Positions 2,757-49,702 of a stretch of DNA of 64,000 nt are shown here, one piece after another; position 1 is the stretch's first letter; each line of letters begins with the position of its first letter. This DNA is from a virus. The notes below the pieces were generated by a model, which saw only the letters and a program-made list of their open reading frames with translations, had not been told where the DNA came from and searched no databases. A program made the translations under genes and the position numbers. The stretch spans positions 202,924 to 266,923 of IMG/VR virus record IMGVR_UViG_3300036772_000425. One strand, given 5' to 3'.

Positions 2757-3560
2757 TCAACCTTCCTCGAGGACAAGGTGGCGCTCGATGTAGGCACGGT
2801 CCTGGTTGAACAGCGGGATGTTCAGATGAGCCTCCCACCGCGGTCGTCGGACCGGCTCCGGATCTCCGGGCGCCCATCCCACAGCGGGTGGCTCTGAAAC
2901 GGTTCGGACGATACACGACCCGCGCCGGTACCGAGACGGTAGATCATTCCAGTTTTGGCCCTTCTGGAAGCACATCTCCTGCATCTCGGAACCGTTCTTT
3001 CCGTCGATCTCCTTGTGGGAGTGCAGGGACCGTGCCAGCATCTGGATCGAGTTCCTCGATGCATCCTTCTGTCGCCACAGGAAGTAGTTGCACACCTCCG
3101 ACTCAGGGAGGGTGAACGCTCTGGCATCGAACACAGCTGGCTTGACGTACACGCTGCTGTCGCTGTCGGGCACCTGCTCCCAACCCGTTTCGGCCCACAT
3201 CTTCCAGCTGTTGACGCTGAAGTACGCGGAGGCGGTGCCAGCGGCGATGCTCACCATCTTCTGGACCTGGTTGTCGAACCAGGACTGTGAGTGGAACGTC
3301 TTGTACCCGTGGACGAGCACAGAGATCTCATCCGATTGCGTGTACGCCAGCTGCGCTCCCTGGATCACATCGCACAGGCGCCGGGCGGTGCCGACCATGA
3401 GATCGCTGAACCGCTCGTCGAATGGCTTCTGGGCGCGTTGGGTGTACTGGCTGAACGCCTTCCCATCGACCCTGATGATGACGGGAGAACGTCCGGGCAG
3501 GACGTTCCTGAAGGCACGTTCGTACCCCTTCATCCGTTCGCTGAGCTCACTTTCGGACAT
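2757..3560 (-). CDS. Thg1-like protein (tRNA-His guanylyltransferase family, 3'-5' nucleotidyltransferase)
   Basis: IIRVDGKAFSQY and TQSDEISVLV blocks match Thg1 RLDGRNFH/GQSDEYSFVF; WRQKD block matches SWRQAD; start at internal Met, ATGA overlap with upstream gene. Confidence 0.8.
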   Translation of the reverse strand: MSESELSERMKGYERAFRNVLPGRSPVIIRVDGKAFSQYTQRAQKPFDERFSDLMVGTARRLCDVIQGAQLAYTQSDEISVLVHGYKTFHSQSWFDNQVQKMVSIAAGTASAYFSVNSWKMWAETGWEQVPDSDSSVYVKPAVFDARAFTLPESEVCNYFLWRQKDASRNSIQMLARSLHSHKEIDGKNGSEMQEMCFQKGQNWNDLPSRYRRGSCIVRTVSEPPAVGWAPGDPEPVRRPRWEAHLNIPLFNQDRAYIERHLVLEEG

Positions 3561-3946
3561 CAGTTCATCTCCTTCAGCTGCTTGGGTGTCACGACAGGGT
3601 CCACTTCTGAGGGTTGCACCAGCGGTGCATTCCCCATGCTCCAGGTGCATGCAGCGGAGGCGCTGACCACGATGCTCCAGAACCGACCGTCGATCCTGTT
3701 GATCACGTCGACCACCTCCGCCCTGATCCCGATCGCTGAGTACTCATTGCGCTCCATGTCGTTCCGCGGAGCACGGGTGATCGACATGGCGATGATGCAC
3801 GATGGTCCCTCGTTGTAGCGGGTGATCAACGCTCGTCCCAACGGACCGACCGTGTACCCTCGCCTGATCAGCTTGGCGACCAGGCGCTCCGCAACATCAT
3901 CGCTGTTCGCCACGATCCAGGCGTAGTACGTTTGAACATCAGCCAT
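3560..3946 (-). CDS. hypothetical protein
   Basis: 128 aa; translationally coupled (ATGA) to the Thg1-like gene. Confidence 0.5.
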   Translation of the reverse strand: MADVQTYYAWIVANSDDVAERLVAKLIRRGYTVGPLGRALITRYNEGPSCIIAMSITRAPRNDMERNEYSAIGIRAEVVDVINRIDGRFWSIVVSASAACTWSMGNAPLVQPSEVDPVVTPKQLKEMN

Positions 3947-3949
3947 GCA

Positions 3950-4237
3950 TCACCTCAATTCGCAACCATACTTGGCTGCGTTCTCTTTGACCTCGTCCAT
4001 GTCCTTCAGGTTCATGGCGATGAGACGATCGTCACGCCAGCTCCTGGACCCGTACAGGTGGTACTTCACCACGAGCGCAGAATTCGGATCTTGGTACACG
4101 GTTTGACCCACGTAGCAGTACGAGATCCTACCGTCAGCCGTCACAACCTTCATGATCGGGTACCCAATGGCCACCACCATCATCAGGATGAAAGCCATCA
4201 GACCGACGGCACGCACCTTTTCAGAGAAGGTTTCCAT
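3950..4237 (-). CDS. small membrane protein
   Basis: hydrophobic stretch LMAFILMMVVAIGYPIM predicts one TM helix. Confidence 0.5.
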   Translation of the reverse strand: METFSEKVRAVGLMAFILMMVVAIGYPIMKVVTADGRISYCYVGQTVYQDPNSALVVKYHLYGSRSWRDDRLIAMNLKDMDEVKENAAKYGCELR

Positions 4238-4270
4238 GGGTGAGCATCCTACAACGGATGCTCACGGTGG

Positions 4271-4519
4271 TCAAGTTGGCATCTTCTGCCAGACCTGCAG
4301 CGGGATCATCTTCAACGCGCTGAGGGCCATGCTGGCGGCTGCGAATGCATCCTGCAGCTCAGCATCATCCTTGATCTCACCCGATGCGACCATGCCCGCG
4401 ATCACCCCCTGGAGGCGCTCGCGGACGCGTTCCTTCTTCATGTAGCCCTTGGAGGCGCTGATCTTCTCAACCTTGGCCTCCAACAGCAGCGCGCGCAGCC
4501 GGCCCACAGAGATCTTCAT
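4271..4519 (-). CDS. hypothetical protein
   Basis: 82-aa ORF. Confidence 0.4.
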   Translation of the reverse strand: MKISVGRLRALLLEAKVEKISASKGYMKKERVRERLQGVIAGMVASGEIKDDAELQDAFAAASMALSALKMIPLQVWQKMPT

Positions 4520-4534
4520 GCTGCTACGTATGGT

Positions 4535-5349: not shown

Positions 5350-5370
5350 ACCTGATCCTACTCCTTCCGC

Positions 5371-5661
5371 TCAGGAGAGTGCAGGATCCCGCAGTGCCTC
5401 CAGGAAGGTGTCGTACGCATCACGTCGTGCAACGTTCGACTCGATCTTCAGGACAGCGAGGGCCATCTTCAGCGTCTTCATGTCGAGACGATTCGAGTAC
5501 TCCTCGATGATCTCCTTCCGATCCTCCTTCAGGGTCTCGACCTCGTCGTCGACCCGTTGGATCTTCTCCGTGAATTCATGGACGAGCGCCTTGAGGGCGT
5601 TCAGCTCGTCGGGTTGCAGGTCAGCGATCGCAGGTGCTTCATTCTTGGATTTACGTGCCAT
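5371..5661 (-). CDS. DUF2312/GapR-like small DNA-binding protein (tentative)
   Basis: 96 aa; amphipathic helices with a pattern resembling Caulobacter GapR (EKIQRVDDEVETLKEDRKEI / LDMKTLKMALAVLK / DAYDTFLEAL). Confidence 0.45.
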   Translation of the reverse strand: MARKSKNEAPAIADLQPDELNALKALVHEFTEKIQRVDDEVETLKEDRKEIIEEYSNRLDMKTLKMALAVLKIESNVARRDAYDTFLEALRDPALS

Positions 5662-5701
5662 GTTGCAGAACGTACACCGCCGGTGCTACCATGTTCAGGT
5701 G

Positions 5702-6802
5702 CTACATGGCCTTGATCTTACCGATCGTGTCATGGTACGCCTGGACGTAGGGACTGCTGGTGGGCACCCCACCGTCAGTGGCCTGCTTCACCTGAGCCTC
5801 CAGGTTCTTCAGGTAGAATGATTTCATGCTCTCCTTGGTGCTCTTCAGGATCGCCTGTTCGAATTTCTGGCGGTCCTGCTGGGGCACCTGCTGCAGCTTG
5901 TCGAGCCCCTGGAGCTTCGCTTTTGTCTTGCTCTGCAGGTCCTGCAGTGTCCGAGCCGACATCACGGCCTTCGCTCGGTCCAGGACATCCTTCAGGCTGG
6001 CCTGCACGGCCGCTCGACCCTGCGATTCCATCTGTTTGACGAGCTGGTTGTCCTCGATCATGGCGTGCAGCTTCTTGCTGCTGAACAGCTTCGCCAGGTC
6101 GGCTCCCTCTGACCCACCCTCTGACGCTTCCCTGACCACACCTTCGTAGTAGTCGATACCGGCTCCGATGGGCCCGAGCTCGCCCTTCTTGTGATGGTAG
6201 TTGGCACGGCCGAAACCTCCGACATGACCGTGAGAACGGTGCTGATCGTGTCCCTGGTTGTGCCTGTTCTTGATCCGGTGCACCACATCGTCCGTGCGGC
6301 CACCCGTCAGGGTGCTCAGCATGCCCAACAGCGCATCCGGAGCCTTTCGTGCAAACCCGATGGTGAAAAAGGCTGCTGGTGCGTAGAAGAACGCGGCGAC
6401 AAGGACATCGTTGTCCAGGAAGGCGTCCCAGTTCGACTTGTAGACCTCTGAGTACTCCTGCTTGATCTTCTGCAGGGCGTGGCGCTCCTGGTCGAAGATC
6501 TGCTTGTAATCATCCCGCAGGATCGGGATGATTGTGGTGGCGATCGTCTCGAACGCGGTCCGGACCAACGTCTGCGCCTTGACGCTGAGCTCCTTGGTCT
6601 TTCCGATGGTGGTGTTGACGACATCGGCGAACGGCTTGATGAAGATGTTGTACAGATCGTTGCCCGATCCGTAGTGCACCCCGTAGGGGCTCATCGACAT
6701 GCCGGTTGAGATGAGATCGTAGGCTCCGTAGCCGCCATGATCACCCTCCTCCGACAGGAGGGTGCGCACGTACTCCTTCAGCAGCTCACGTTCTGACGGC
6801 AT
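5702..6802 (-). CDS. hypothetical protein (366 aa)
   Basis: long ORF with good composition and a His-rich internal segment. Confidence 0.55.
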   Translation of the reverse strand: MPSERELLKEYVRTLLSEEGDHGGYGAYDLISTGMSMSPYGVHYGSGNDLYNIFIKPFADVVNTTIGKTKELSVKAQTLVRTAFETIATTIIPILRDDYKQIFDQERHALQKIKQEYSEVYKSNWDAFLDNDVLVAAFFYAPAAFFTIGFARKAPDALLGMLSTLTGGRTDDVVHRIKNRHNQGHDQHRSHGHVGGFGRANYHHKKGELGPIGAGIDYYEGVVREASEGGSEGADLAKLFSSKKLHAMIEDNQLVKQMESQGRAAVQASLKDVLDRAKAVMSARTLQDLQSKTKAKLQGLDKLQQVPQQDRQKFEQAILKSTKESMKSFYLKNLEAQVKQATDGGVPTSSPYVQAYHDTIGKIKAM

Positions 6803-6814
6803 CGCTCCTAAGTA

Positions 6815-7240
6815 TCAGCCCAGCAACCGGAGGGCGCCCGCGATCAAGGTCCGTTGGTACGATACGATCTCCGGCAGTTGGGAGATCGGGAACCACCGTG
6901 CGTCGGCAACCTCGTTGTCAGGATCATCGTGCTTGGGCTCATGGTCACCCACCGGACGTGCGAGCCATGACATCACGGTCTTCACCTCGTGGCGGGAAGT
7001 GAATGTGACGGGCGGCAGCGCCTGGCCCAGCTCGATCAGGACACCTGTCTCCTCTTTGACCTCTCGCCGGGCTGTGTCCTCGAACGCCTCACCTGGGTTG
7101 ACGTGACCCTTGGGGATTCCCCAACGATCCCGTCCCTTGAACTGCTGAATCAGCAGGATCGCGGGTCCAGCCTCGGTCGCACGCCAGGTCACAGCACCGC
7201 ATGAGGTCACGCGGACGCGCTCCTTGTTCTTCGTCACCAT
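6815..7240 (-). CDS. NUDIX hydrolase
   Basis: Nudix box GHVNPGEAFEDTARREVKEETGV (GX5EX7REUXEEXGU). Confidence 0.8.
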   Translation of the reverse strand: MVTKNKERVRVTSCGAVTWRATEAGPAILLIQQFKGRDRWGIPKGHVNPGEAFEDTARREVKEETGVLIELGQALPPVTFTSRHEVKTVMSWLARPVGDHEPKHDDPDNEVADARWFPISQLPEIVSYQRTLIAGALRLLG

Positions 7241-7252
7241 GTTCCATACAAT
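7224..7252 (+). promoter_or_regulatory. sigma70-like promoter candidate (TTGTTC-N17-TACAAT) upstream of the NMNAT-like gene
   Basis: -35 TTGTTC at 7224-7229, 17-nt spacer, -10 TACAAT at 7247-7252; GGAGG RBS 10 nt before the ATG at 7281. Confidence 0.4.
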
Positions 7253-7280
7253 ACCCCTGGTCGCAGGAGGTGAGCAATTG

Positions 7281-7811
7281 ATGAAGATCGGTTTGATCGC
7301 TGGCGGTTACAAGCCCCTTCACCGGGGACATTTCTGCATGATCCAGATGGCTGCAGCAGAGTGCTCCACCGTCCGGGTGTTCGCATCGAAGAGCGACCGA
7401 TGCAGGAAGGGGGAGCGAAGCATCTCAGGCCACGACATGGTGATGCTATGGGACAGGACGTACCGCAACATCATGCCGTCCAACGTCCGGGTCACCTTCA
7501 GCGAACAATCACCGATCCGTGATGTTTGGGACGCGCTGGGCAACCCGGACGAGGGTTGCAGCTACACCGTGTACTCAGACCCGACAGACCTCACCCACAA
7601 CTTCCCGAACGACAGGTTGCTGCGGTACTGTCCGAAGCTCCTCGACGAGGGTCGTGTTCACCTCAAGGCAGTCGACCGCACCTCCACCGTCGACGTGAGC
7701 GGGACCATGATGCGCCGGCTCCTGGACGAGGGCGATCGGGTTGGGTTCACCGCCATGCTGCCCGACGGGGTCGACTGCGACCTGATCTGGAACACCCTGT
7801 TGGGCACCTGA
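7281..7811 (+). CDS. nucleotidyltransferase of the NMNAT/cytidylyltransferase superfamily
   Basis: (H/T)xGH motif GGYKPLHRGH near the N-terminus; SxT-like VSGTMMRRL near the C-terminus; start at MKIGLI with RBS. Confidence 0.7.
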   Translation: MKIGLIAGGYKPLHRGHFCMIQMAAAECSTVRVFASKSDRCRKGERSISGHDMVMLWDRTYRNIMPSNVRVTFSEQSPIRDVWDALGNPDEGCSYTVYSDPTDLTHNFPNDRLLRYCPKLLDEGRVHLKAVDRTSTVDVSGTMMRRLLDEGDRVGFTAMLPDGVDCDLIWNTLLGT

Positions 7812-8663
7812 CCGCAACAGGTTTTCAACGTACTCACGACGCAGCCGGTACTTGGGCTCGAACCGGGTGATGCTGTACAGCGAGAAGGCCAGGTCGTAGT
7901 CGGACGCAGGGACGTGGATGTACCCTGCGTCGACCGCGCAGAAGATCCCCACGTTGTACGCCCCCAGGACGACAGACGGCACCAGGGATTGTTGGATCTG
8001 GGATCGAAGGCTGGGATCGAAGGACACGTACACCTTGTTGACCGACACCTCACCCTCTTCCAGGAAGGACCAAGTTTCCGCTGACAGCTGATCCTCCGTC
8101 CATGTCCGGGCCAACGTTCTGAACAATCGTCCCCAGTGCTTTCTGCCTCCCTGCCGCGAGCTCAACAAGCACTCCTTGCCGACGAACTTGACCTCCCCAT
8201 ACGGGGTGTCGTTGTGGTCCAGCGTGGGGGTCGGATCCAAGCCTAAACGGATCCGGATCTCTCTTTCCCACCGACCCTCGTAGGCCATCACGGGTGCATG
8301 CGAGCAGTTCATCGTACGTTCTTCATTGCTGAAGATCCCGCCCAGCCTCGGATCACTTTCCCTGGTGTGGGCCACCAGGCCCACAAGCTCTTCCAGGTTG
8401 AAGCATTTCAACGCTTCGGGTTCAGCTGCCACCATGCCTGAACGTCTGCTCTCTAGGTCATCCAATGCTCGTTGGGCCCTTTCAAGTGACCTTTCATCCG
8501 CCCTTGTTGGGATCTGACGGCTCTTGGACCGACCTACGTTCATCTCCTGCTTGGAACCGATGGTGCGCGCTAGCCGTTCTACCTCGTCGTGGAGACGAAG
8601 GATCTCGGCATCCATCGGAACAATGACGGAGATGAACGCAGGGGCCTGCGTGAATTCATCCAT
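7575..8663 (-). CDS. hypothetical protein; 3' ~235 nt overlap convergent NMNAT gene
   Basis: ORF track 7575..8771; the start is set at the internal MDEFTQ; the C-terminal ~70 aa look like a low-complexity readthrough antisense to the NMNAT gene. Confidence 0.4.
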   Translation of the reverse strand: MDEFTQAPAFISVIVPMDAEILRLHDEVERLARTIGSKQEMNVGRSKSRQIPTRADERSLERAQRALDDLESRRSGMVAAEPEALKCFNLEELVGLVAHTRESDPRLGGIFSNEERTMNCSHAPVMAYEGRWEREIRIRLGLDPTPTLDHNDTPYGEVKFVGKECLLSSRQGGRKHWGRLFRTLARTWTEDQLSAETWSFLEEGEVSVNKVYVSFDPSLRSQIQQSLVPSVVLGAYNVGIFCAVDAGYIHVPASDYDLAFSLYSITRFEPKYRLRREYVENLLRSGAQQGVPDQVAVDPVGQHGGEPNPIALVQEPAHHGPAHVDGGGAVDCLEVNTTLVEELRTVPQQPVVREVVGEVCRV

Positions 8664-8721: not shown

Positions 8722-9918
8722 CTACATGCGAACAGTTCCCATCCGGGTCCGATCGTATCGTTGGATCCCAAGGATCTGATTGACAGGAGCGAAGCAACCG
8801 GTCAACTTGTAGGTTTGCCCCCGCCAGGGGAAGACCACCCCCTCGATCGAAGAGGTGATGCCACCGTAGTGTGTGAGATCATCGAGGTTATCGTGCAGCA
8901 GTTCGACCTGTTCCGGATCTGCATCTGCCTCGATCTGAGCAGCACAGGCTCTCACCGCATCATGCATCATCTGCAGGGAACGCTGGTGGGATACGACCAT
9001 GGGAGACCGAGCGAACGCGAGCGTATCGACAGCAAGCCGTTGGACGATACCCACGATGGGCCTACGAAGTATCTTGACCAGGAGTTCCGATCGTTCGACG
9101 AACTCACCGATCTTCCAGCTGAATTCCGGGCATTGCTGCTTGAGAAGCGTCAGGTTATGGTACCCGGGCAGCTTCAAGGCACGTGCGACGATGCGACACT
9201 GCATCCTGATCGGCAGGTGAAGCTCTTCAACGAACGGGACGAGGCGCATTCGCAGGTAGTCTGCGATGGTCGAATCCAGCCCAAGGTCTGAAACAGCAAG
9301 GGTGTGCTGCAGGGCACGTTGGAACGTAGGTAGGCATGAGTCCGGCCGAGCACTGAAGTTGATGGGAACCGGGCCCCTCACAGTCCACCCAGCTGCATCC
9401 AGCGTCCCTGGGCCCAGGATGGGATCGAGGGCATCGGGCCGGCAGCTGTCCTTGATCGCCTTCCCATCGACGACCCTGAAGCTAGAGCAGCCATGGATGA
9501 CCACGTGGTTGCCCACGTACCTCACCACGTTCGGGTTGTCCTCGCTGATGATCTCAGCGTTGTACCAGCGCTGTGCCTCACCGAAGGTCGACAGCAGGAG
9601 ATCGACGGAAGCCCGCCCGATCGCACCCTGCAGGGCACGGAAACCACCCACGAACGCAAGGATGACGTTCGGTTTGTTCGGGAACCTAGCCGCCAGCTCG
9701 GGCTCTCCCATCCCGCCGCGGACGATGTCTCCCAGGCCACGGGCCACCCGGAGACCGGCAACGGGATGCCAACTGAACGTCAGCGCCTGGCCGTCGAGCT
9801 TCTCTGTCGCTCCGGCCAGGCGACCACCGTGGATCGTCTCGGCAAGTTCGAGCAGGTCACGGAACCTGAGCTCATGATCCTCGTACAGGTGCTTGATGTG
9901 TCCGGCAGCTCCGCCCAT
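8722..9918 (-). CDS. ATP-dependent RNA ligase, Rnl1-like
   Basis: nucleotidyltransferase motif I EKLDGQAL (KxDG) about 40 aa from the N-terminus; size (398 aa) similar to T4 Rnl1. Confidence 0.55.
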   Translation of the reverse strand: MGGAAGHIKHLYEDHELRFRDLLELAETIHGGRLAGATEKLDGQALTFSWHPVAGLRVARGLGDIVRGGMGEPELAARFPNKPNVILAFVGGFRALQGAIGRASVDLLLSTFGEAQRWYNAEIISEDNPNVVRYVGNHVVIHGCSSFRVVDGKAIKDSCRPDALDPILGPGTLDAAGWTVRGPVPINFSARPDSCLPTFQRALQHTLAVSDLGLDSTIADYLRMRLVPFVEELHLPIRMQCRIVARALKLPGYHNLTLLKQQCPEFSWKIGEFVERSELLVKILRRPIVGIVQRLAVDTLAFARSPMVVSHQRSLQMMHDAVRACAAQIEADADPEQVELLHDNLDDLTHYGGITSSIEGVVFPWRGQTYKLTGCFAPVNQILGIQRYDRTRMGTVRM

Positions 9919-18132: not shown

Positions 18133-18570
18133 TCACAAAAATTCCAACTCGACCGCGTCCAGCAGGCACAGGACCTCAACACCGGTCGATCGAAGAAGCT
18201 CGATCGGTGCAGGATCCCTGTACAGTTGGTCGTACACCACCCTGGTGATGTCCGCGTTGATGATCAACTTGGAGCACATCAGGCACGGGCTGTGCGTGAT
18301 GTACATGTGTTTCAGCTTGGGAAAACTGAAGTCGCACTTGACCAGCGCGTTCGTTTCAGCATGGATGTAACCGGATTTTCCAGGTTCCTCAGAATCAGGT
18401 ACGTGCGGACCACCCTTGTAGTTCCCATTGTACCCAATCGCAAGCACCGCCGTGTTGTCAGCCGGCACGACCAGGGCGCCCACCTGCAGGCGCCTGTCGT
18501 AGCTTCTGCCTGCAATGACGTGTGCCATTGACATCCAGGTCTGTGCCCAACCCTGCCGCCGTTGGTTCAT
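18133..18570 (-). CDS. dCMP deaminase (cytidine/deoxycytidylate deaminase family)
   Basis: zinc-binding HAETNAL and HSPCLMCSKLI (HxE...PCxxC). Confidence 0.8.
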   Translation of the reverse strand: MNQRRQGWAQTWMSMAHVIAGRSYDRRLQVGALVVPADNTAVLAIGYNGNYKGGPHVPDSEEPGKSGYIHAETNALVKCDFSFPKLKHMYITHSPCLMCSKLIINADITRVVYDQLYRDPAPIELLRSTGVEVLCLLDAVELEFL

Positions 18571-19700
18571 GCCCCCACCAGTCCCTGGAACAATTCCAGC
18601 TCCCTACGCTCCAGTTCCATACCGAGCTCCTTGCCCGAGAACCCGAGAGCCAACAGTGGGTCACCCCTGACAGGGTCCATGTCCATGTACTCTCCGAGCG
18701 CCATGATGTTCGGATCAAGTGAGATACCGCAACCGATGACGTACTCCAGGACCTCGGAGTCCGTCAGGCCTGATGACCTGATCCGTTTCCGGAGCCGGCT
18801 GGGCTCGGAACCGTCGAACCGGGAGAGCTCCAGCAGAGCCATGGTGCTACGAACCTCTCGATCGCTGTACTTCATGCTACGGAGGATCCGATCGACCTTC
18901 ACCGGATCGTTCGTAGACAGCAGGCCGGCAAGGAAGACGGGCACGCTGCGTGACATCACCGGGGGGTTGGTCCACAGGCCTGGGATGACACGTGCCCACA
19001 AATTGTGGTCCGTCATCAGATCACAGAACAGTTCGGGGCTCTGTGCGGTCGCCAGGGTCCGGATCAGTTCATCATGGATCCTTTCGGACGAGATCCCATC
19101 CAGGTCATGCGAGAGCAGGGCCCGTGATGTCGCAGGGTCCACCTGCCAACCGAACCGTGCGGCGAACCGGATCGCCCTGAGGACCCGAAGCTTGTCCTCA
19201 CGGAACCTCTCCTGTGGGTCCCCCACGGCCCGAAGGATCCCTGCTCGGATGTCGCTCAACCCGCCCACCAGGTCCACCACCTCTCGGGTTCGGATGTCGT
19301 AGAAGAGCGCATTGCAGGTCAGATCCCGACGTTGAACGTCCTCCACGATGGTCGCGAATCGGACCGTCGGGTGTCGACCTAACGACAGATCCTCTCGGAA
19401 GGTGGCGATCTCTACGTGCTCCGTCGCACCGGGCAATTCAGTGGCGATCACACCGAAGGCAGCGCCGACCTCCATCACCGGGTGACCGAGGGACGAAACG
19501 ATCGCCTTCACATCGTGGGGTGCAGCATCGGTAGCGAGATCAAGATCCTTCGGCACCAAGCCCAGCACAGCATCGCGAACGGCACCCCCAACCACGTACA
19601 GGGAAGAACCCCGTGAACTGAAGGCAGCCGCGAGCTCATCGAGAGATTCTGGCAGGGCGATCTGAAGGGATTGACGTTCCATTTCAGCAGACACTACCAC
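18567..19700 (-). CDS. tRNA nucleotidyltransferase (CCA-adding enzyme), head domain only
   Basis: GGAVRDAVLGLVPKDLDLATDA and RRDLTCNALFYD motifs of class II CCA/poly(A) polymerases; 377 aa, no HD domain. Confidence 0.85.
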   Translation of the reverse strand: MVVSAEMERQSLQIALPESLDELAAAFSSRGSSLYVVGGAVRDAVLGLVPKDLDLATDAAPHDVKAIVSSLGHPVMEVGAAFGVIATELPGATEHVEIATFREDLSLGRHPTVRFATIVEDVQRRDLTCNALFYDIRTREVVDLVGGLSDIRAGILRAVGDPQERFREDKLRVLRAIRFAARFGWQVDPATSRALLSHDLDGISSERIHDELIRTLATAQSPELFCDLMTDHNLWARVIPGLWTNPPVMSRSVPVFLAGLLSTNDPVKVDRILRSMKYSDREVRSTMALLELSRFDGSEPSRLRKRIRSSGLTDSEVLEYVIGCGISLDPNIMALGEYMDMDPVRGDPLLALGFSGKELGMELERRELELFQGLVGA

Positions 19701-30395: not shown

Positions 30396-30415
30396 GGGCG
30401 CAACGGTCTGCATGC

Positions 30416-31153: not shown

Positions 31154-31188
31154 CTTCCAGTAGCCTTTCCTGGAAGATAGGTATCAGC

Positions 31189-35985: not shown

Positions 35986-35999
35986 AGAACACCCTACCA

Positions 36000-36569
36000 C
36001 TAAAGGTTGGCCCATTTCACAAGATACGCTTGAGCGTTCAAAACGAAGTCCCGATCTTCAACAACTGCCAGCTTCAAATTGCAATTTCGACACAACAATC
36101 CTCTGATCCTACCTGAGTTGTGATCATGATCGACTGCAGCGGAGTTCACATCGAAAGCTGATTTGCAGATCTCGCAAAGAAAATCCTGTGAGATCAGTTT
36201 GTCCCTGAACTCAGAATGACAAATCCCATAGTTCTTGATCCGACGAATGTCAGAACTCGTTGAAACGCACTCATCACAGTAAAGCTGGCTGCTGGAATTC
36301 AGCTTGAAGTTTTTCTTGCAGTGCTTGCAGCACTTGTCCTTCAAAGATCGATTACGTACAGCTTCGACAAGCTGCGGAGTTCTAACTTGTCTTTCACGTA
36401 CTAGTCCAAAACGATGGATAGCGTACTGAATCTGTCCTTGCGTCACCGTGAGACCGAGCGTCTCCAAACGATTCCCGATGATCGATGCCGACAATTTGTC
36501 AAGCATGTACCAAGCAACGATCTCTTGACGAAAGGCATCAAGTTTGATTTGAACTGCATTCATCTTCAA
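36000..36569 (-). CDS. Endonuclease VII (T4 gp49)-family HNH-like nuclease with N-terminal HTH-like domain; probable homing endonuclease
   Basis: AVDHDHNSGRIRGLLCRNCN hallmark plus CKHCKK upstream; the gene lies in a ~43% GC island. Confidence 0.65.
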   Translation of the reverse strand: MKMNAVQIKLDAFRQEIVAWYMLDKLSASIIGNRLETLGLTVTQGQIQYAIHRFGLVRERQVRTPQLVEAVRNRSLKDKCCKHCKKNFKLNSSSQLYCDECVSTSSDIRRIKNYGICHSEFRDKLISQDFLCEICKSAFDVNSAAVDHDHNSGRIRGLLCRNCNLKLAVVEDRDFVLNAQAYLVKWANL

Positions 36570-36572
36570 ACT

Positions 36573-37532
36573 TCACTTGCACACCTTCCTGAAGTACTCG
36601 ATCGACAGGTCCAGCCCTTCTTCGAGCTGTACCCTGGCATCCCAACCCATGTAGGCTCGAGCCAATGAGGTGTCCGGGCGGCGCTGCAGCGGATCATCGC
36701 ACGGCAACGACCTGAACGTGATACCAACACCGAAGCGCTTGGCGACATTTTGGGCCAGCTCAAGGATCGTGAACTCGTTCGGATTGCCCATGTTCACCGG
36801 TCCGCCCGGATTCTTGGGTAGTTCACCCAAGGCCACGATGCCCCTGATCAGGTCGTCTACGTAGCAGAAGGAACGTGTCTGCGATCCGTCCCCGTAGACC
36901 GTGAGATCCTGGCCCCTGATGCCCTGGCAGATGAAGTTGCTGATCACTCGACCATCGTCGGGGTCCATGTTGGGACCGTAGGTGTTGAAGATCCTGACGA
37001 GCCGAGCGTCTGTTCCGTGCTTGTGAAGGTAGTCGTAGCACAGTGACTCAGCGGCGCGCTTCCCTTCATCGTAGCACGAACGTGGACCGTAGCTGTTGAC
37101 GCTGCCGCGGTACGCCTCAGCCTGTGGGATCAGTTCAGGGTCACCGTACACCTCAGAGGTCGATGCATGGACGATCCTGGCGCCCCTGTCGCCAGCAAAG
37201 TCCAGGATGTTCTTGGTGCCTACCACGCACGTCATCAACGTTTCGATCGGGATCCTCTGGTAGATGGGCGGCGAGGCCGGACACGCGAAGTTGTACGCGA
37301 CGTCAAGGCATCGGATCTTCTTCAAGGATCTCTGCCATCCTGTACTGGCAGAGATGTCGCCCTCTACCATGGTGAAGTTCGGATGTTCGCACAGGGCACG
37401 GTAGTGCGCGCTGCTACGGGTCGATGAACAGAAGTTGTCGATTCCAAAGACAAGATCTCCCTGGACAAGGTGATGCATCGACAGGTGCGATCCGAGGAAC
37501 CCAGCGGCGCCGGTGACCAGCACCCGCATCAT
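36573..37532 (-). CDS. UDP-glucuronate decarboxylase/UDP-xylose synthase-like SDR (NAD-dependent epimerase/dehydratase)
   Basis: VLVTGAAGFLGSHL; SEVYGDP; YDEGK (YxxxK); C-terminal QRRPDTSLARAYMGW typical of the UXS/ArnA-like subfamily. Confidence 0.75.
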   Translation of the reverse strand: MMRVLVTGAAGFLGSHLSMHHLVQGDLVFGIDNFCSSTRSSAHYRALCEHPNFTMVEGDISASTGWQRSLKKIRCLDVAYNFACPASPPIYQRIPIETLMTCVVGTKNILDFAGDRGARIVHASTSEVYGDPELIPQAEAYRGSVNSYGPRSCYDEGKRAAESLCYDYLHKHGTDARLVRIFNTYGPNMDPDDGRVISNFICQGIRGQDLTVYGDGSQTRSFCYVDDLIRGIVALGELPKNPGGPVNMGNPNEFTILELAQNVAKRFGVGITFRSLPCDDPLQRRPDTSLARAYMGWDARVQLEEGLDLSIEYFRKVCK

Positions 37533-41975: not shown

Positions 41976-42851
41976 CTATGCAGCACCGATGCTGGCAGGC
42001 ATCCTGCGCCGGATCTCCTGCATGGCCCAATCGTACTGGACGGGGGAGCCCAACTGGGTCGACATCTCAAGGAGGCGTTCCCCTGTCAGGTGACCCAGGA
42101 TCGACATCAGGCTGCGTTCCGCGCAACGTTTCTGCGGTAGGATCAGCATCCGCTGCAACGCATTGAGCCCGCCCTCCTCCGGAAGCACCTGATTGATCCT
42201 GTGAAACCTGCGAAGCTCCAGAGCGCCGTTCACGATGGGCAACAGGTACTCCGCGACGAGCGGAGTCACCGATTCGTACCCACGGTGTTCCATCCACCTG
42301 ACGAACCGGTTGATCGTCTGCTCAGATTGCCAACTGTGAACGTGCAGCACCTTCCCCTCTTCCAGGGACCTGAGGTGCTGAGGGTAGGTGATGGTGTCGA
42401 GGTCAAGGCCGACCATGGCGTTGTAGATGTCGAACCGTCGCAGCTGTTCCACCATCGGATTGAAAAAACCGGTGATCACCTGCACACGGTAACCGGCGAT
42501 GCGGGTCTGCATGGCAAGGTTGCTGATTTTCCATGTCAGCTTACCTCGAGCGATGATGTCCAGCAAGGCTGCATCGTTCAGGAAGTTTTGTTCCTGTTCC
42601 CTGTTTGGGAACCACAGGTCGATGTCTCCTGAGGAGGTATGGGAGATCAGGTAGTGGTCGAGGGCATCAGCGAGCTTCATACCGTGCCTACCGCAACCGA
42701 ACTCTGAACGTGCCACCTGCGTACCGAAACCTCCGGCAATGTAGCCACCGTGTTGGAAACAGATCAGCATCGTCTCCCGTAGGGCATTCGAGAGGTCTGC
42801 GGCGGCGAACCAGTCTGACGGTGCTGTGATGAACTCTACATCCTCAACCAT
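41976..42851 (-). CDS. hypothetical protein (possible Pol-beta-like nucleotidyltransferase motif)
   Basis: GGYIAGGFGT ... SGDIDLWF; the motif spacing is atypical, so assignment is tentative. Confidence 0.4.
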   Translation of the reverse strand: MVEDVEFITAPSDWFAAADLSNALRETMLICFQHGGYIAGGFGTQVARSEFGCGRHGMKLADALDHYLISHTSSGDIDLWFPNREQEQNFLNDAALLDIIARGKLTWKISNLAMQTRIAGYRVQVITGFFNPMVEQLRRFDIYNAMVGLDLDTITYPQHLRSLEEGKVLHVHSWQSEQTINRFVRWMEHRGYESVTPLVAEYLLPIVNGALELRRFHRINQVLPEEGGLNALQRMLILPQKRCAERSLMSILGHLTGERLLEMSTQLGSPVQYDWAMQEIRRRMPASIGAA

Positions 42852-43161: not shown

Positions 43162-43929
43162 TTACACGGCCAGGCGCTTTAGCATGGTCCCAAATGTCAG
43201 TTCATCGCTCTCAATGACCACGAAGCGGCGGCCGAGGCGCCGGGCCGCGAGGGCGGTGGTGCCGGAACCGGCGAACGGATCGACCACGTATTCACCGGGG
43301 GTTGTGTGCACCTCGATGGGCACCTCGATCACACGCTGTGCCTTCTGTGCAGGGTGCACCTTCCCCTGCATCATTTCGGTGATGTCTGACCAGACGTTGG
43401 TCCGGCGGTAGTGCTCGCTCTTGGCCGGGTACTGCGCCTTGAAACCAGAGTAGCCCCTCTTCGCCTCCAGCAGCGGAACCTGGAACTTCCGAGGTTTCTT
43501 TGCGTTGCCCTTGACCAGGTAGGCACACTCTTCGCGCGTCCACAGGTAGTTGTTCTGCACCCCGTACGCACGTTTCTTTGCCCATGTGATCAGGTTGGCG
43601 AGCTCGAGCCTCCCTGCGTCCTCCACGTCCACCAGGTACCGGAGGAAGGGTCTGAAACCCGGCTTGCCCACCCCGCCCCACACGTAGAAGGCACCACCGT
43701 CGACAAGGCATGCTTCAGCCCAGGACCTGGTCCAGCCCACCATCCAGGATGCGAATTCCCGATCCGGACCATCGACACGATCCCAGGCAGATCTGAGGAC
43801 ATTCCCGTACGGTGGATCTGCAACGATGAGTGGGACCTGTCCCACCAGGTCCCTCACCGCATTGATGGTGCTGGGTTGGGTGGAATCTGCACAGACGGCA
43901 AAGCCGTCCGTGAGCTCCACGACCCTCAC
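43162..43929 (-). CDS. DNA methyltransferase, beta-class amino-MTase (N6-adenine or N4-cytosine)
   Basis: motif IV DPPY precedes motif I VVDPFAGSGTT. Confidence 0.8.
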   Translation of the reverse strand: MRVVELTDGFAVCADSTQPSTINAVRDLVGQVPLIVADPPYGNVLRSAWDRVDGPDREFASWMVGWTRSWAEACLVDGGAFYVWGGVGKPGFRPFLRYLVDVEDAGRLELANLITWAKKRAYGVQNNYLWTREECAYLVKGNAKKPRKFQVPLLEAKRGYSGFKAQYPAKSEHYRRTNVWSDITEMMQGKVHPAQKAQRVIEVPIEVHTTPGEYVVDPFAGSGTTALAARRLGRRFVVIESDELTFGTMLKRLAV

Positions 43930-44738
43930 TGGACCTCGATCAGACCTTGCACCGTGGGTGCGTTGTACTCGGCCGCACCCACGTTGACCTGCAGGTTGTC
44001 CCTGATCTTCGCGCTGAAACGTCCATGGGTGTGCCCAGCAAGGACGGTGAACGTGTTGTTCGGGAACACCCGAGATGCATCCAGGAGCATGTCACCCATC
44101 AGCTTGCTGGTGAACCAGGGTTGCGCTCCGTCGTCTCCCACCTTTCCTTGGTAGATGTGTGACTCCTTGAACGGAGGGTAGTGGGTCAGAATGATGATGT
44201 TCCGGTGGTAGCGGACTGCCTGCTTGATGCCATTTTGGACATGGGTCACACCTTCATGTGCCAGCTTTCGGGCCAGGCTGACGATGGTCGCTTTGTTCCC
44301 GTTGACCTCCTTGAAATCATGGATCGCGTTCCAATCAGTCATGGAGAAGTTGCTGTTCTGCCAGTCACCGTAGCATGCATCGTACCAACCGTCGTGGCCC
44401 ACGACTGCCGTGGCCGGAGACAACCCGTAGTACGGCATGGTCGGCATGTAGCGCAGGAACTGGCTCATGTTGCTGAGTTCCTTCATCGATTTCCGCATGG
44501 CCTCCACACCGGAACCGTAGTAGTCATGGTTCCCAAGGACGAAGTAGATGGGTCGTTGGACCACCTTCTCGATCTGTGAGAGGTGCAGGACCAGGTTCTT
44601 TGCCGTTGAGATGTCACCTGTCAGGAAGATCCCGGTCGGATCACCCTGCTTCAGGGACTCCGCGAAGTTGAGGAAGGCCTGCGGGTTGTTGTTCAAGAAA
44701 TCGAGATGAGTGTCTGTAGCCCATGCATAGCGTGCCAT
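43926..44738 (-). CDS. calcineurin-like metallophosphoesterase
   Basis: DTHLD, GDISTA, GNHDYY, GHTH motifs; ATGA-coupled to the DNA methyltransferase gene. Confidence 0.75.
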   Translation of the reverse strand: MARYAWATDTHLDFLNNNPQAFLNFAESLKQGDPTGIFLTGDISTAKNLVLHLSQIEKVVQRPIYFVLGNHDYYGSGVEAMRKSMKELSNMSQFLRYMPTMPYYGLSPATAVVGHDGWYDACYGDWQNSNFSMTDWNAIHDFKEVNGNKATIVSLARKLAHEGVTHVQNGIKQAVRYHRNIIILTHYPPFKESHIYQGKVGDDGAQPWFTSKLMGDMLLDASRVFPNNTFTVLAGHTHGRFSAKIRDNLQVNVGAAEYNAPTVQGLIEVQ

Positions 44739-45342: not shown

Positions 45343-45593
45343 TCATAGCTCGGTTCAGAGTATTCCATGTGTTCTTTGCACGTACGCCGGTACGCTTCAA
45401 TGAAAGACTCAGCGTCGCTGGGCCTTGCCGGAAGATCCAAGATCATCTCAGGGCCCACCTTGGGCCTGTAGGTGCACTTGACCACGTACGGATGCTCGGA
45501 GCTCCTCTCGAAATGGTGTTGACCTGAATCAACCTTGATGATCTTCCCTTGCACAACGATCAATCCCAAGCTCATTCGAACATCCTCTGCCAT
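45339..45593 (-). CDS. hypothetical protein
   Basis: 84-aa ORF. Confidence 0.4.
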   Translation of the reverse strand: MAEDVRMSLGLIVVQGKIIKVDSGQHHFERSSEHPYVVKCTYRPKVGPEMILDLPARPSDAESFIEAYRRTCKEHMEYSEPSYE

Positions 45594-46393
45594 GCTCCGG
45601 GTTCAAGTCGATTCTGGACGATGGAGCGATCGTGCCAGTGCGTCTCAGTGTCCAGGATCTTGTTGGTGAAGCTGTCCCGCACCAGCTTGTACCGTCCCTT
45701 CACCTCCCCCTTCTCTTCCCACTTCAGGTACAGACCCTCCATGTCGAAGGAAGGATCGGTCTGTTTGATGACCTCGGAGACGGTGCGTGATAGGCCCGCG
45801 TTGATCGCTGCGGTGGTCAGGTTGTCGAGCCGGTGCCAGTCCTGTCCCGACCGTGCGCTGGTGAAGAAGCTTCTGACAAGGAACGACTGCACCTCCTTCA
45901 AGGAATCGAACTTCCCCTCGCTCAGGACGTGCACGGGGACAACAGGAATCCCCTGGAGGAGCACGCGGCGGGCTGGCGTGCTCAGGAAGGTGGACGTCTC
46001 AGTATCGAGGATGTCGAACTCCATGAAGTAGTGCGGCAGCATGTCGTAGAAGACGGTATGCTTGGCGAAGAGGTTCTCTCCGTACATCACGTACCGTGAC
46101 CCAAGGGCACAGAAGAATTCTGTCTGGCGTGCCGCTGACCACTGTTTCAACCACTCGAACTGTTTTTCTCGAGGTCCTCCATGGAGGTAGTGACCTCGAG
46201 ACTGCAGCAGTAGCTCACCGTCGGACGTGAAGGAGATGCCGCAGTTGGCACCGTCCATTTTCTCCTCGATGACCAGGTGCTTACCCCTGAGCTCCGACCA
46301 GGGCACAGTCTCCATGTCGTGGTCGCCATGTTGGAGCCGTGAGCCTCGGATGTGCTGCGTCCGAGGGTACTTCCGGATGTCAGGATGCATCAT
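45572..46393 (-). CDS. RNA ligase, Rnl2-like (KxDGxN nucleotidyltransferase)
   Basis: motif I VIEEKMDGANCGISF; start at internal MMHPDIRKYP. Confidence 0.55.
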   Translation of the reverse strand: MMHPDIRKYPRTQHIRGSRLQHGDHDMETVPWSELRGKHLVIEEKMDGANCGISFTSDGELLLQSRGHYLHGGPREKQFEWLKQWSAARQTEFFCALGSRYVMYGENLFAKHTVFYDMLPHYFMEFDILDTETSTFLSTPARRVLLQGIPVVPVHVLSEGKFDSLKEVQSFLVRSFFTSARSGQDWHRLDNLTTAAINAGLSRTVSEVIKQTDPSFDMEGLYLKWEEKGEVKGRYKLVRDSFTNKILDTETHWHDRSIVQNRLEPGAWQRMFE

Positions 46394-47494: not shown

Positions 47495-47740
47495 TCAATC
47501 CTCCGTTGGTACCAGCCGCGTCAGCCAGATGAGCATCACGTCCTCGATCGAACATGCGAAACCCAACGCGGTCACGTCACCGGCAACATCCTGTACGATC
47601 CTCCTGATCTGCAGGTGCTGGTTCAGGTCAAAGCAGATCGGAGAGCGCTTCAGGTGTTCATCCAACCGTTCGATGACGCAAAAATTGCGTGCGAGCGTCG
47701 CCGACAACTGCTTCAACGTTCTGACGGCGGGAGACAGCAT
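47495..47740 (-). CDS. hypothetical protein
   Basis: 81-aa ORF. Confidence 0.35.
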   Translation of the reverse strand: MLSPAVRTLKQLSATLARNFCVIERLDEHLKRSPICFDLNQHLQIRRIVQDVAGDVTALGFACSIEDVMLIWLTRLVPTED

Positions 47741-48333
47741 CAGACACCTTGCCCACGGGAATGGATGGCTGCACAGGCCTCATCCCAGTCCTTGATCCTG
47801 ACGATCTTGGTCCCGGCGAGGTCGACCGACCTGTTGTACGGAGCGTCCCACAGCAGTGTCAAGGCATTCGGGTGTTCAGCGCGCCACTTGAAGCAGTTCT
47901 CGTCCGCGTCATCGATCAGGACGTCTCCCTTGACGAAGTGCTTGCTCTCTGCGTGGACGATCCTGGCCTTTGGGATCCCGAAGTGCTTGTCCAACCACAT
48001 GGTCCGTTCGTAGGCCCAATGTGGTGCTGTCATGGGTGAGGTGACGATGATAACATCGCCAATGGCTTCCAGACGCCGAACGCCCTCCTGCGCTCCCTCG
48101 TACATGGGAAAGTTGATGCACCAACCGCTCTTGGTCTGCTCTTCCTTCATCAGAGGCTTCAGATGGCCCTTACCGACCACCTTGAAGAGGTCCCAATGCG
48201 TTACCTGATCGTGGGTGTGACGATCACCGGTGTGACGTTCGATCAGGTCGAAGCATGCGGTGCAGAAGTCTGCGATGACCCCATCGCAGTCCAGCAGGAT
48301 ACGCGGTTTGCTCATGCTCACATCATCAACCAC
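47740..48333 (-). CDS. HAD-family 5'(3')-deoxyribonucleotidase (NT5C-like)
   Basis: HAD motif I LLDCDGVIADF; size and pattern consistent with the NT5C family. Confidence 0.65.
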   Translation of the reverse strand: MVDDVSMSKPRILLDCDGVIADFCTACFDLIERHTGDRHTHDQVTHWDLFKVVGKGHLKPLMKEEQTKSGWCINFPMYEGAQEGVRRLEAIGDVIIVTSPMTAPHWAYERTMWLDKHFGIPKARIVHAESKHFVKGDVLIDDADENCFKWRAEHPNALTLLWDAPYNRSVDLAGTKIVRIKDWDEACAAIHSRGQGV

Positions 48334-48453
48334 AGATCAACGTTCTACATCAGGTCGGTTGTCGACGAGTCAACGCAAACAACATGCCCAATGCCATCAC
48401 CGGCAGCAGCATCAGCAGGCCGATGAAGGCGAGCTTTTCATCATCAGACATTT

Positions 48454-48714
48454 TCATTCGTCATCCTTTCGTTTCCTGACATTGCAGATCTGGCCGGTCC
48501 TTGGGTCGATGACAAGTGTCACCTGGAAGACATCATCACACAGACGCTCCTCGTCACCCTCGGTGAAGGCTTCAGCCTCTGCTTCCGTGTTGAAGAACAA
48601 CACGTTGGCGCTGCCGTCTCCTTGGCTTCGAACGTAGACCCAAGGTTTGATGAAGATGACAGTTGGATCTGCGATGGGCTTGTTCTTTTTCATCTCAGAA
48701 CGCACCTGGGGCAA
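48454..48714 (-). CDS. hypothetical protein
   Basis: 86-aa ORF. Confidence 0.35.
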   Translation of the reverse strand: MPQVRSEMKKNKPIADPTVIFIKPWVYVRSQGDGSANVLFFNTEAEAEAFTEGDEERLCDDVFQVTLVIDPRTGQICNVRKRKDDE

Positions 48715-49702
48715 CCTGAAAGCACGTCAGACCGATCGATCGCCAGAAGTCGACGACCTGGTTCCGATCGTCCAGGACGAAGAGGACATGGTACTTGCCC
48801 GCCACGTACCTGTCGAACAGTTCCTGCTTGATGACAGCGTCCTTGCGTTGGTCGAGCTTCTCCGGGTCGGGAGCCGTCTCCCCACGCATGTGAAGCTCGT
48901 ATTCGATCGGTCCAAGAACGACGGCAGGAGCAGGCCCACCCGGATTGAGCGGACGGATTTCTGGCACGCAGTACATCTCGATGAAGCGCTGCGTTTCGGG
49001 ACGGTACTTCTGATCACGGCCCGACATGAAGATGATCTTCGTGCCCTGCTCGTGCATCGCCAGGACAGCACGGATGACGGCCCAGTTGGGCAGGTCCTTC
49101 AGGTCGCAGTCTGTTGCATCGTACGGTGTACGGTCACCGATGATCGCCAGGGTCCCGTCGAGGTCGCACATGATTGCCTTGGGCAGCGTCTCGTCCTGGA
49201 CCACGACCTTGAATGCATCGGGCCTGGGCTCGTAGTACGTTTCCTTGTCGTTCAGGCGCCGACCCTTGTCGAGGCCCGCTCCGCGGGCCATGTCCAGGAT
49301 CACCTTCTCCCCGACATGTGCGAAACCAGTTCGATTTGAATCACGTTCGATCGCCGTCTTGGTGTCGACGTTGACAGCCTTCTCGATCACCTTGACGTCC
49401 CCGTACCCGGCCGCCGCGGCATGGAGCTTCTTCAGGGTCTGCGGGACCAGGTGGGTGTCATCAAGGATGACATCGTACCCAGAGTCGAAGGCCTGCCGCA
49501 TCAGGGCCTCCTTCATGGCCCGCATCAGCTCCTCACGGGAGTTGTCACGGGCATGCGGGTTGTTGCCCGGACCCACCACCATCCCACGCAGATCATCACG
49601 GTTGATACGGATCCAACGCTTGGGTTCCTTCCGCACCAGGTCGGCGGCAAGTGTCGACTTTCCGCTGCCCGGGAGTCCCTTGAAAATCATGAGAGTGCGC
49701 AC
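48695..49702 (-). CDS. pnkp: polynucleotide kinase/3'-phosphatase (T4 Pnkp-like)
   Basis: N-terminal P-loop MIFKGLPGSGKST; C-terminal HAD phosphatase IMCDLDGTLA (DxDGT) at about residue 167. Confidence 0.85.
   Translation of the reverse strand: MRTLMIFKGLPGSGKSTLAADLVRKEPKRWIRINRDDLRGMVVGPGNNPHARDNSREELMRAMKEALMRQAFDSGYDVILDDTHLVPQTLKKLHAAAAGYGDVKVIEKAVNVDTKTAIERDSNRTGFAHVGEKVILDMARGAGLDKGRRLNDKETYYEPRPDAFKVVVQDETLPKAIMCDLDGTLAIIGDRTPYDATDCDLKDLPNWAVIRAVLAMHEQGTKIIFMSGRDQKYRPETQRFIEMYCVPEIRPLNPGGPAPAVVLGPIEYELHMRGETAPDPEKLDQRKDAVIKQELFDRYVAGKYHVLFVLDDRNQVVDFWRSIGLTCFQVAPGAF

Follow-up and report, generated by a model that had tools for sequence, protein, structure and literature searches.

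Jumbo phages combine RNA ligases of the Rnl1, Rnl2 and RtcB types with PNK-HAD, RlaP, a CCA-adding enzyme, sporadic Thg1, and calcineurin-like or HD phosphatases, and the role proposed for these RNA-repair enzymes is to counter host immunity that cleaves tRNA (Iyer, Anantharaman, Krishnan, Burroughs & Aravind 2021, Viruses 13:63, section 3.4.9; PMC7824862). Here, we analyzed a 64,000-nucleotide stretch of viral DNA (IMG/VR record IMGVR_UViG_3300036772_000425, positions 202,924 to 266,923), called the window below, whose RNA end-repair genes resemble this complement in both the parts list and the proposed purpose. The window differs from it in three respects: its lineage is uncultured; one of its ligases is neither an Rnl1 nor an Rnl2 and has an NMNAT-like partner; and no RtcB, PTH2, 2H or KptA was seen in the ~83 kb that was read, namely the window with 10 kb on each side. 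We put at about 65% the probability that the window holds part of a jumbo-phage RNA/tRNA end-repair complement, in which a conserved heal-and-seal module is joined by accessory enzymes that restore RNA ends. The toolkit concept itself is known, because Iyer et al. had described the set and proposed its purpose. The locus is therefore a further example, from an uncultured lineage, and the same idea in the original prediction, an earlier reading of the window from its letters, was already in print.

The sequence read belongs to the 168,718 bp Logan metagenome contig SRR11832861_66505, of which positions ~84,480-148,479 are the window in reverse complement. Two window proteins are identical in sequence to proteins recorded for a 340,433 bp JGI contig; the genome is therefore jumbo-sized, at least 340 kb.

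The original prediction had described six repair genes as dispersed across the window. The six open reading frames (ORFs) do lie on the minus strand where they had been placed, within the superfamilies named and with small start-codon differences for some. However, the core is not dispersed, because five related IMG/VR contigs (Pnkp 60-82% identical) keep RlaP, Pnkp, the PF09414 ligase and the metallophosphoesterase in this order. Two of these four genes, RlaP and the metallophosphoesterase, had been missed, as had the NMNAT-like gene described further below. The members of the module are:

51226..52173, minus strand: RlaP (PF10127), a nucleotidyltransferase of the Pol-beta family and the first module gene (Pfam E 9.1e-22; phrog_388 7.6e-69)
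48695..49690 (gene caller's start), minus strand: Pnkp, 5'-kinase and 3'-phosphatase (AAA_33 1.2e-17; HAD_PNKP 2.6e-44; phrog_505 7e-77)
45572..46393, minus strand: ATP-dependent RNA ligase of PF09414, 273 amino acids (aa) (E 1.3e-29; 104 bits against a cutoff of 27)
43926..44738, minus strand: calcineurin-like metallophosphoesterase, the fourth module member (Metallophos 1.2e-10; TIGR03729 2.5e-13)

This core is clearly one system. RlaP, which scores 78.4 bits in Pfam against a cutoff of 23, is syntenic with Pnkp, the ligase and Metallophos in all five contigs (L116-L119 and L131) at 63-74% identity, and the metallophosphoesterase is kept downstream of the ligase in L116, L117, L119 and L131 at 51-58% identity. 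Pnkp orthologues that are 78-82% identical were found in four IMG/VR contigs. These close relatives were read over 8 kb on either side of Pnkp. In the window, FA_hydroxylase, NT5C and OMP decarboxylase genes break up the module, which spans 43.9-52.2 kb; the compact L119 version takes up 4.6 kb, with a spacing of 32 nt between Pnkp and the ligase. Members of the RlaP family put one or two nucleotides on damaged RNA 3' ends, and RlaP is required for restoring the aminoacylation of over-damaged tRNA (PMC12776372). The metallophosphoesterase is a candidate 2',3'-cyclic or 3'-phosphate esterase.

Pnkp was correctly predicted to be of the T4 type (48695..49702, with the caller's start at 49690): an AAA_33 P-loop kinase domain (residues 4-140) is followed in the same protein by a C-terminal HAD (DxDxT) phosphatase, which is the T4 architecture. 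Its motifs GLPGSGKS and CDLDGT align with those of Pnkp1 (4XRP, E 9.4e-41) and T4 Pnkp (1LTQ, 1.1e-27). The likeness to the T4 system, where Pnkp and Rnl1 act against the damage done by the PrrC anticodon nuclease, extends to an ATP-dependent RNA ligase and to the logic of healing before sealing. Unlike in T4, neither window ligase belongs to the Rnl1 family, RlaP and a metallophosphoesterase are added, and the genes are syntenic, which T4 pseT and rnlA are not known to be. The second comparison is with the bacterial Pnkp/Hen1 and Pnkp1-Rnl-Hen1 systems (Capnocytophaga 4XRP, Clostridium thermocellum Pnkp). Pnkp1 is the best PDB match of the window Pnkp, and the bacterial mix of kinase, phosphoesterase and ligase, the phosphoesterase being of the calcineurin type, is mirrored in the window. 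In contrast to the bacterial systems, the window places these activities on separate polypeptides, its kinase-fused phosphatase is of the HAD type as in T4, and no Hen1 methyltransferase was detected in the part read.

The module ligase had been called Rnl2-like. Its place among the PF09414 RNA ligases stands, but the Rnl2 subfamily is unsupported: the protein consists of the nucleotidyltransferase domain only, ends ~35 residues past motif V and lacks the Rnl2-specific C-terminal domain that is needed for nick sealing. Across 32 homologues there is no variation in motifs I (K45), III (E106), IIIa, IV (E219-G220) and V (K236). Using an AlphaFold2 model (predicted local distance difference test, pLDDT, 87.6), Foldseek returned REL1, Rnl3 (Pab1020, MthRnl), Rnl5 (NgrRnl) and T4 Rnl2 at E 8e-8 to 5e-6, mutually inseparable, with Rnl1 at 1e-4 and DNA ligases at 1e-3 or worse. 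The start at 46393 is preferred over the caller's 46315, because the homologues, which are 260-275 aa long, extend over 97-100% of the resulting 273 aa protein.

The second ligase, for which the original prediction proposed an Rnl1-like identity, is of a different kind. It lies in a block of five genes, which are given below.

8722..9918, minus strand: RNA-ligase-fold nucleotidyltransferase, 398 aa, with motifs I, III, IV and V; unannotated family
7281..7811, plus strand: NMNAT-like nucleotidyltransferase of the HIGH superfamily, uncalled (phrog_3462 NMNAT 5.6e-8; HRGH and SGTMMR motifs)
6815..7240, minus strand: NUDIX hydrolase (NUDIX 1.4e-22), adjoining the NMNAT-like gene and kept beside the block in L010, L014 and L017
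7575..8663, minus strand: conserved protein of 362 aa between the ligase-like and NMNAT-like genes, with no family or PDB match
5702..6802, minus strand: conserved protein of 366 aa that travels with the ligase/NMNAT/NUDIX block, with no family or PDB match

The 398 aa protein matched none of the Pfam, PHROG and NCBIfam models, nor any PDB sequence at E up to 10. Nevertheless, the RNA-ligase fold and motifs that had been predicted are there: E39, K40, D42 and G43 (motif I), E122 (III), E359-G360-x-V-F (IV) and K371 (V), with every numbered residue invariant in 14 sequences. Across 56 multidomain members of the family, no variation occurs in motifs IV and V, and motif I reaches at least 90% conservation. 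What does not hold is membership of Rnl1. Motifs IIIa and IV are separated by a helical insert of ~150-200 aa, and the protein lacks an OB domain; neither an Rnl1-type C-terminal helical tRNA-binding domain after motif V nor an Rnl1-closest structure was found, the protein being structurally no closer to Rnl1 than to Rnl2, Rnl3, Rnl5 or Trl1. It is an RNA-ligase-fold enzyme of the RNA-ligase type, and not an Rnl1. The fungal and plant Trl1, a ligase-kinase-cyclic phosphodiesterase fusion, offers a further comparison. The new family differs from it in domain order, in having a HIGH/NMNAT-like domain in place of the 2H cyclic phosphodiesterase and in the helical domain between motifs IIIa and IV; moreover, the partner domains are separate genes in the window.

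The family is large. Its profile search returned at least 2,396 representative clusters (at 50% identity), 1,259 of them at E <= 1e-30; at least 589 IMG/VR viral contigs carry a relative, and multidomain proteins make up two thirds of the best representatives. Fusion partners in the 56 multidomain members are a cytidylyltransferase-like HIGH nucleotidyltransferase (14/56) and, in others, a Pnk-type kinase (AAA_33/Zeta_toxin); CCA-type PolyA_pol domains are a further partner, once together with an HD domain. BFVD and GenBank name such fusion proteins only 'cytidyltransferase-like'. A literature search on the ligase/cytidylyltransferase/kinase fusion and on Mel-JY01 found nothing, the Burroughs & Aravind 2016 survey being outside its coverage. 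The cultured Microcystis phage Mel-JY01 encodes a 639 aa fusion of the HIGH nucleotidyltransferase and the ligase module (L011 3287..5206; PP395634.1 11243..13162), which is annotated only as 'cytidylyltransferase like protein'. The same label is carried by a 591 aa protein of cyanophage S-PM2, a weaker and more distant BFVD match (E 4.8e-5, TM 0.44).

In the window, the partner is a gene of its own. The NMNAT-like protein matches the region C-terminal of the ligase module in the fusion protein P0184 at E 3e-29, and in the syntenic relative L010 a gene at the corresponding place, on the opposite strand, is 37% identical to it (E 5e-38). The gene caller missed it because the longer, convergent minus-strand ORF 7575..8663 overlaps it by ~237 nt (7575..7811). 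That ORF is itself 33% identical (E 8e-44) to a 277 aa gene of L010, but the homology stops at residue 287; since the L010 orthologue has no counterpart to them, the last ~75 codons may be a chance antisense extension. The 366 aa protein has tblastn matches of 35-41% identity in L014, L016 and L017. The NMNAT-like domain shares one ORF with the ligase module in 44 of 80 IMG/VR loci, and is a separate, oppositely oriented gene beside NUDIX in this phage and in L010, L014, L016 and L017. Its PDB profile matches are headed by archaeal NMNAT (6e-8), followed by NadR and PPAT, and also include 2QJT, a 352 aa NMN adenylyltransferase entry that we take to be a NadM-Nudix enzyme. With NadM-Nudix (NMN adenylyltransferase / ADP-ribose pyrophosphatase) the window shares the adjoining of the two activities, in a split arrangement. 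Unlike in NadM-Nudix, however, the window genes are separate and oppositely oriented, the nucleotidyltransferase is divergent (best E 6e-8), and in most viruses it is fused to the ligase module rather than to Nudix.

Could the 398 aa protein be a nick-sealing DNA ligase for replication and repair, possibly NAD+-dependent, whose NMNAT-like partner would remake NAD+ from NMN? The NMNAT fusion would fit such an NAD+/NMN cycle. No DNA ligase was seen in the ~83 kb read, despite a replisome of its own (DnaE, DnaB, RecA and two 5'-3' exonucleases), and in T4-like marine phages a homologue sits among the gp32, UvsW, DNA polymerase B and RNR genes. Against this, the motif I lysine is intact in both window ligases, and each of them falls among the RNA ligases and not among the DNA ligases or capping enzymes; we regard a DNA-sealing role as quite unlikely.

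As a side observation, the ligase module of P0217 is fused to an N-terminal domain with a homologue (E 5e-26) in the window, namely the 256 aa protein (phrog_4301) of the plus-strand ORF 62157..62927. It counts as a third Rosetta-stone link, to which no meaning is assigned.

Three accessory genes complete the predicted set:

2757..3560, minus strand: Thg1-like protein (TLP) of bacterial type, 267 aa (PF04446 E 7.9e-29, 100.7 bits against a cutoff of 29.2; phrog_4717 3.6e-82)
18567..19682 (caller's start; originally 19700), minus strand: class II tRNA nucleotidyltransferase / poly(A) polymerase family (PolyA_pol 6.9e-28, 98 bits; PolyA_pol_RNAbd)
26150..26716, minus strand: Orn-like DEDDh 3'-5' exonuclease (NF003765 Orn E 1.1e-21; 24/24 PDB matches Orn/REXO2; DEDDh motifs)

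The Thg1-like assignment was borne out, with the gene caller giving the same 267 aa, the PF04446 score above its cutoff and the catalytic carboxylates intact. In the PDB, the Bacillus thuringiensis TLP 4KGK matches best (E 1.5e-55, ~45% identity over the full length), and the catalytic motifs read RVDGKAF and QSDEIS against IDGAHF and QSDEIS of 4KGK (RVDG/SDEIS shared). Candida, yeast and human Thg1 match far more weakly, at 1e-12 to 1e-8. By these matches, the protein is placed in the bacterial TLP clade, not with the G-1-adding eukaryotic Thg1. It differs from 4KGK in being phage-encoded. Its predicted activity is templated 3'-5' polymerisation that repairs tRNA 5' ends, and the gene appears to be accessory. 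The repair of 5'-truncated tRNA by TLPs through templated addition is described in PMC4820378 and PMC3701042, and for the B. thuringiensis enzyme such 3'-5' addition is documented in the latter. The claim that a phage Thg1 is uncommon is right in number (163/50,697 phage records), but such genes are routinely and widely annotated.

Two contigs place Thg1 next to other repair genes. In L108 (IMGVR_UViG_3300010998_000001), an unrelated viral contig of 155 kb, RlaP-like, CCA-like and Thg1-like genes are consecutive and form a compact one-strand trio (675..3798), and in L111 Thg1 lies 1.2 kb from RlaP. Separately, L130 (IMGVR_UViG_3300005265_000022) holds tRNA-Asn, Thg1-like and Pnk-like kinase genes within 2.6 kb (5640..8222).

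For the gene predicted to encode a CCA-adding enzyme, the class II nucleotidyltransferase family holds and the CCA specificity is unproven, because the protein scores equally against poly(A) polymerases and CCA enzymes. Its head motifs are A (GGAVRD and KDLDLA), B (RRDLTCN) and D (REDKLR). In NCBIfam, TIGR02692 (CCA) gives 7.6e-50 and pcnB 4.5e-48, both far under the equivalog cutoffs; in the PDB, E. coli poly(A) polymerase gives ~1e-30 and CCA-adding enzymes 7e-29. The C-terminal 130 residues have no match, and an exact-peptide scan of IMG/VR found no close CCA relatives. The protein is 36-41% identical (E ~1e-65) to domains fused with the new ligase module in P0283, P0265, P0214 and P0261. 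CCA-adding activity is probable.

The exonuclease was also named correctly. All 24 PDB matches are Orn/REXO2 and the DEDDh motifs are present, while the NF003765 match covers model positions 7-170 of 189 at 77.1 bits, below the equivalog cutoff of 106, with DnaQ at 9e-4. By these scores it is Orn-like, but not callable as an equivalog. A DnaQ-type proofreading subunit had been suggested by the PHROGs label 'DNA polymerase exonuclease subunit' and by a position three genes from the split DnaE; that identity was rejected because NCBIfam and all 24 PDB matches give Orn.

The main rival for the Thg1 and CCA genes is tRNA maturation. On this reading, the two enzymes would finish phage tRNAs, by adding G-1 to tRNA-His and CCA where it is not gene-encoded, and would aid the translation of a genome whose codon usage is unlike the host's. 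Phages with Thg1 are typically large and tRNA-rich, RsoM2USA carrying 44 tRNAs and Thg1; in L130 the tRNA-Asn gene lies ~470 nt upstream of the Thg1 gene; and tRNA genes occur within 10 kb of the ligase/HIGH-nucleotidyltransferase gene in 19/80 viral loci and within 1 kb in 5, as raw counts with no background rate. A tRNA array could also lie outside the part read, in ~85 kb of the source contig, or in 250 kb and more for a genome of 340 kb or longer. On the other hand, no tRNA gene was found in the window or in the ~83 kb read, nor within 3 kb of Thg1 in 23 related loci. The window protein is far nearer the bacterial TLP (4KGK, 1.5e-55) than the G-1-adding eukaryotic Thg1 (1e-8 to 1e-12), and TLPs favour templated repair. 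Furthermore, Thg1 lies near RlaP, an enzyme of damaged RNA, in L108 and L111, and maturation leaves Pnkp, RlaP and the ligases unexplained. We consider maturation unlikely. In L022, L031, L034, L035 and L049, tRNA genes stand within 1 kb downstream, on the same strand, of the ligase/HIGH-nucleotidyltransferase fusion.

Returning to RNA end repair, the gene set can be arranged into a plausible sequence of reactions. Cleavage of the ribotoxin type would leave 2',3'-cyclic phosphate or 3'-phosphate ends together with 5'-OH ends. Pnkp, possibly helped by the metallophosphoesterase, would convert these into 3'-OH and 5'-phosphate ends; one or two lost 3' nucleotides would be put back by RlaP; and the PF09414 ligase would then seal the break via a lysyl-AMP intermediate on K45. 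At the acceptor stem, the Thg1-like protein may rebuild the 5' nucleotides by templated 3'-5' synthesis and the class II nucleotidyltransferase the 3' CCA end. The second RNA-ligase-fold enzyme presumably works with the NMNAT-like HIGH nucleotidyltransferase and the NUDIX hydrolase. The Orn-like exonuclease would most likely recycle short RNA fragments. That tRNAs are the substrates, that the modules cooperate and that the purpose is counter-defence we infer from the gene content.

How far does the evidence carry this scheme? The set is fairly complete, and its linkage is more than chance, because the four-gene module is syntenic in five related viral contigs and fusions and adjacency occur elsewhere; the part of the claim that tied the Orn-like gene to the others gained no support. 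Cooperation in RNA end repair is supported by the conserved module, by the RlaP-CCA-Thg1 adjacency in L108 and by the fusion of CCA-type and Pnk-kinase domains to the ligase module. Co-occurrence here is judged from gene neighbourhoods and fusions.

Several observations weigh against an integrated complement. First, Thg1, the CCA-type gene and the second-ligase block vary among the more distant relatives sampled and were not found near one another there, so that the cooperation of the accessory genes with the core is a matter of inference. Pnkp, Thg1 and the PF09414 ligase were never found within 10 kb of the second ligase in 80 loci; the syntenic relative L010 has no Thg1 annotated between NUDIX and the 5'-3' exonuclease; and the CCA gene is absent within 10 kb of the ligase in L014, L016 and L017. 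Second, the class II nucleotidyltransferase could, on its scores, be a poly(A) polymerase, and the Orn-like gene showed no linkage to other toolkit genes at any locus examined. Third, the second ligase is coupled predominantly to an NMNAT-like protein, a pairing that suggests NAD-related chemistry outside a simple repair model.

These points lend themselves to an explanation without any integrated toolkit, in which only RlaP, Pnkp, the ligase and the phosphoesterase form a unit, and the other genes were acquired independently for separate jobs. The class II enzyme would then act in RNA turnover as a poly(A) polymerase, Orn would reclaim nucleotides after the breakdown of host RNA, and the ligase-like/NMNAT-like/NUDIX block would serve NAD+ salvage or NAD-linked chemistry against NAD-depleting defences. 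Consistent with this, the accessory genes are separated by 7-20 kb of nucleotide-metabolism genes and are variable among the relatives sampled, the class II enzyme scores equally as a poly(A) polymerase, and the window is rich in nucleotide salvage (TK, dCMP deaminase, ThyA, ThyX, dUTPases, NT5C). In addition, the NMNAT-like and NUDIX pair resembles NadM-Nudix, which was assigned to NAD+ salvage by Iyer et al. (PMC7824862). Were the activities unrelated, however, it would be hard to explain why CCA-type, Pnk-kinase and HD domains share a polypeptide with the ligase module, and why RlaP, CCA and Thg1 adjoin one another in another virus. On balance, we find the explanation by independent acquisition rather unlikely, and retain the end-repair complement.

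The window region is the replication and nucleotide-metabolism block of an uncultured jumbo phage. It has a GC content of ~58%, and nearly every gene is on the minus strand. The block comprises a split DnaE, DnaB, RecA, ribonucleotide reductase (RNR), ThyA, ThyX, thymidine kinase (TK), dCMP deaminase and dUTPases, together with DNA methyltransferases, homing endonucleases, a phage lysozyme, NT5C and two 5'-3' exonucleases. No near-identical phage was found among GenBank phages, and DnaE is at most 26% identical to any phage record, indicating an uncultured lineage without a close cultured relative. Further features of the block are as follows.

33172..36015, minus strand: first part of the DnaE-type polymerase, 937 aa (PHP, pol3 alpha, finger)
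29031..30464, minus strand: second part of DnaE, 460 aa (weak Intein_splicing, finger, HHH_6)
30416..33150: three genes between the DnaE parts, including a plus-strand glycosyltransferase (31189..32268)
2204..2752, minus strand: AAA_28 P-loop kinase-like protein (AAA_28 2.1e-10), 4 nt downstream of the Thg1 stop
27784..28320, minus strand: second AAA_28 (NadR-kinase-like) P-loop protein
21671..22432, 54729..55727, 52768..53136, 63196..63636, 22663..23679 and 36573..37532: redundant nucleotide-metabolism, epimerase and methyltransferase group

The DnaE arrangement may be that of a split or intein-associated polymerase. Nucleotide metabolism is redundant, with both ThyA and ThyX and two dUTPase-type genes, and two NAD-dependent epimerase/dehydratase genes stand beside MT-A70 and N6/N4 methyltransferases; this group may point to modified DNA or sugar chemistry. 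Three candidates were discarded. The AAA_28 kinase was ruled out as a partner of Thg1, with no homologue beside Thg1 in 23 related loci; alternative-frame tblastn matches inside Thg1 are overlapping-frame artefacts of a GC-rich gene; and a weak precomputed match to Gad2 (anti-Gabija, PF26128) at 41976..42851, minus strand, was not reproduced in a Pfam scan at E <= 0.01.

The toolkit adds a further case to the published picture of large phages with RNA-repair enzymes, presumably carried in order to survive tRNA-cleaving abortive infection. What it contributes is the clear synteny evidence for RlaP, Pnkp, an RNA ligase and a metallophosphoesterase as one module in this phage lineage, along with links by adjacency and fusion that join Thg1, CCA-type enzymes, RlaP and ligases and speak for regarding them as one pathway. 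The more valuable lead is the second ligase, whose family, large and rich in viral members, is unrecognised by the domain libraries searched and nearly always goes together with an NMNAT-like enzyme. Our proposal here is tentative, and we hold it to be somewhat short of an even chance: the 398 aa protein would found an unrecognised, virus-widespread RNA-ligase-fold family, usually fused to an NMNAT-like HIGH nucleotidyltransferase, and often also to a Pnk-type kinase, a CCA-type nucleotidyltransferase or an HD domain. If true, each fusion protein would unite RNA healing and sealing in one self-contained enzyme, and its cofactor logic would be new. The RNA ligase might depend on NAD+ and have the released NMN re-adenylylated in place, such that repair could continue under host NAD+ depletion; alternatively, NAD+ might be supplied locally for 2'-phosphate removal. 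The assignment would also set right how many viral proteins are annotated, given the relatives in at least 589 IMG/VR contigs, and characterising the second ligase could reveal both a new class of RNA ligase and a connection of RNA repair with NAD+ metabolism, each of them a major front in the conflict between phages and their hosts.

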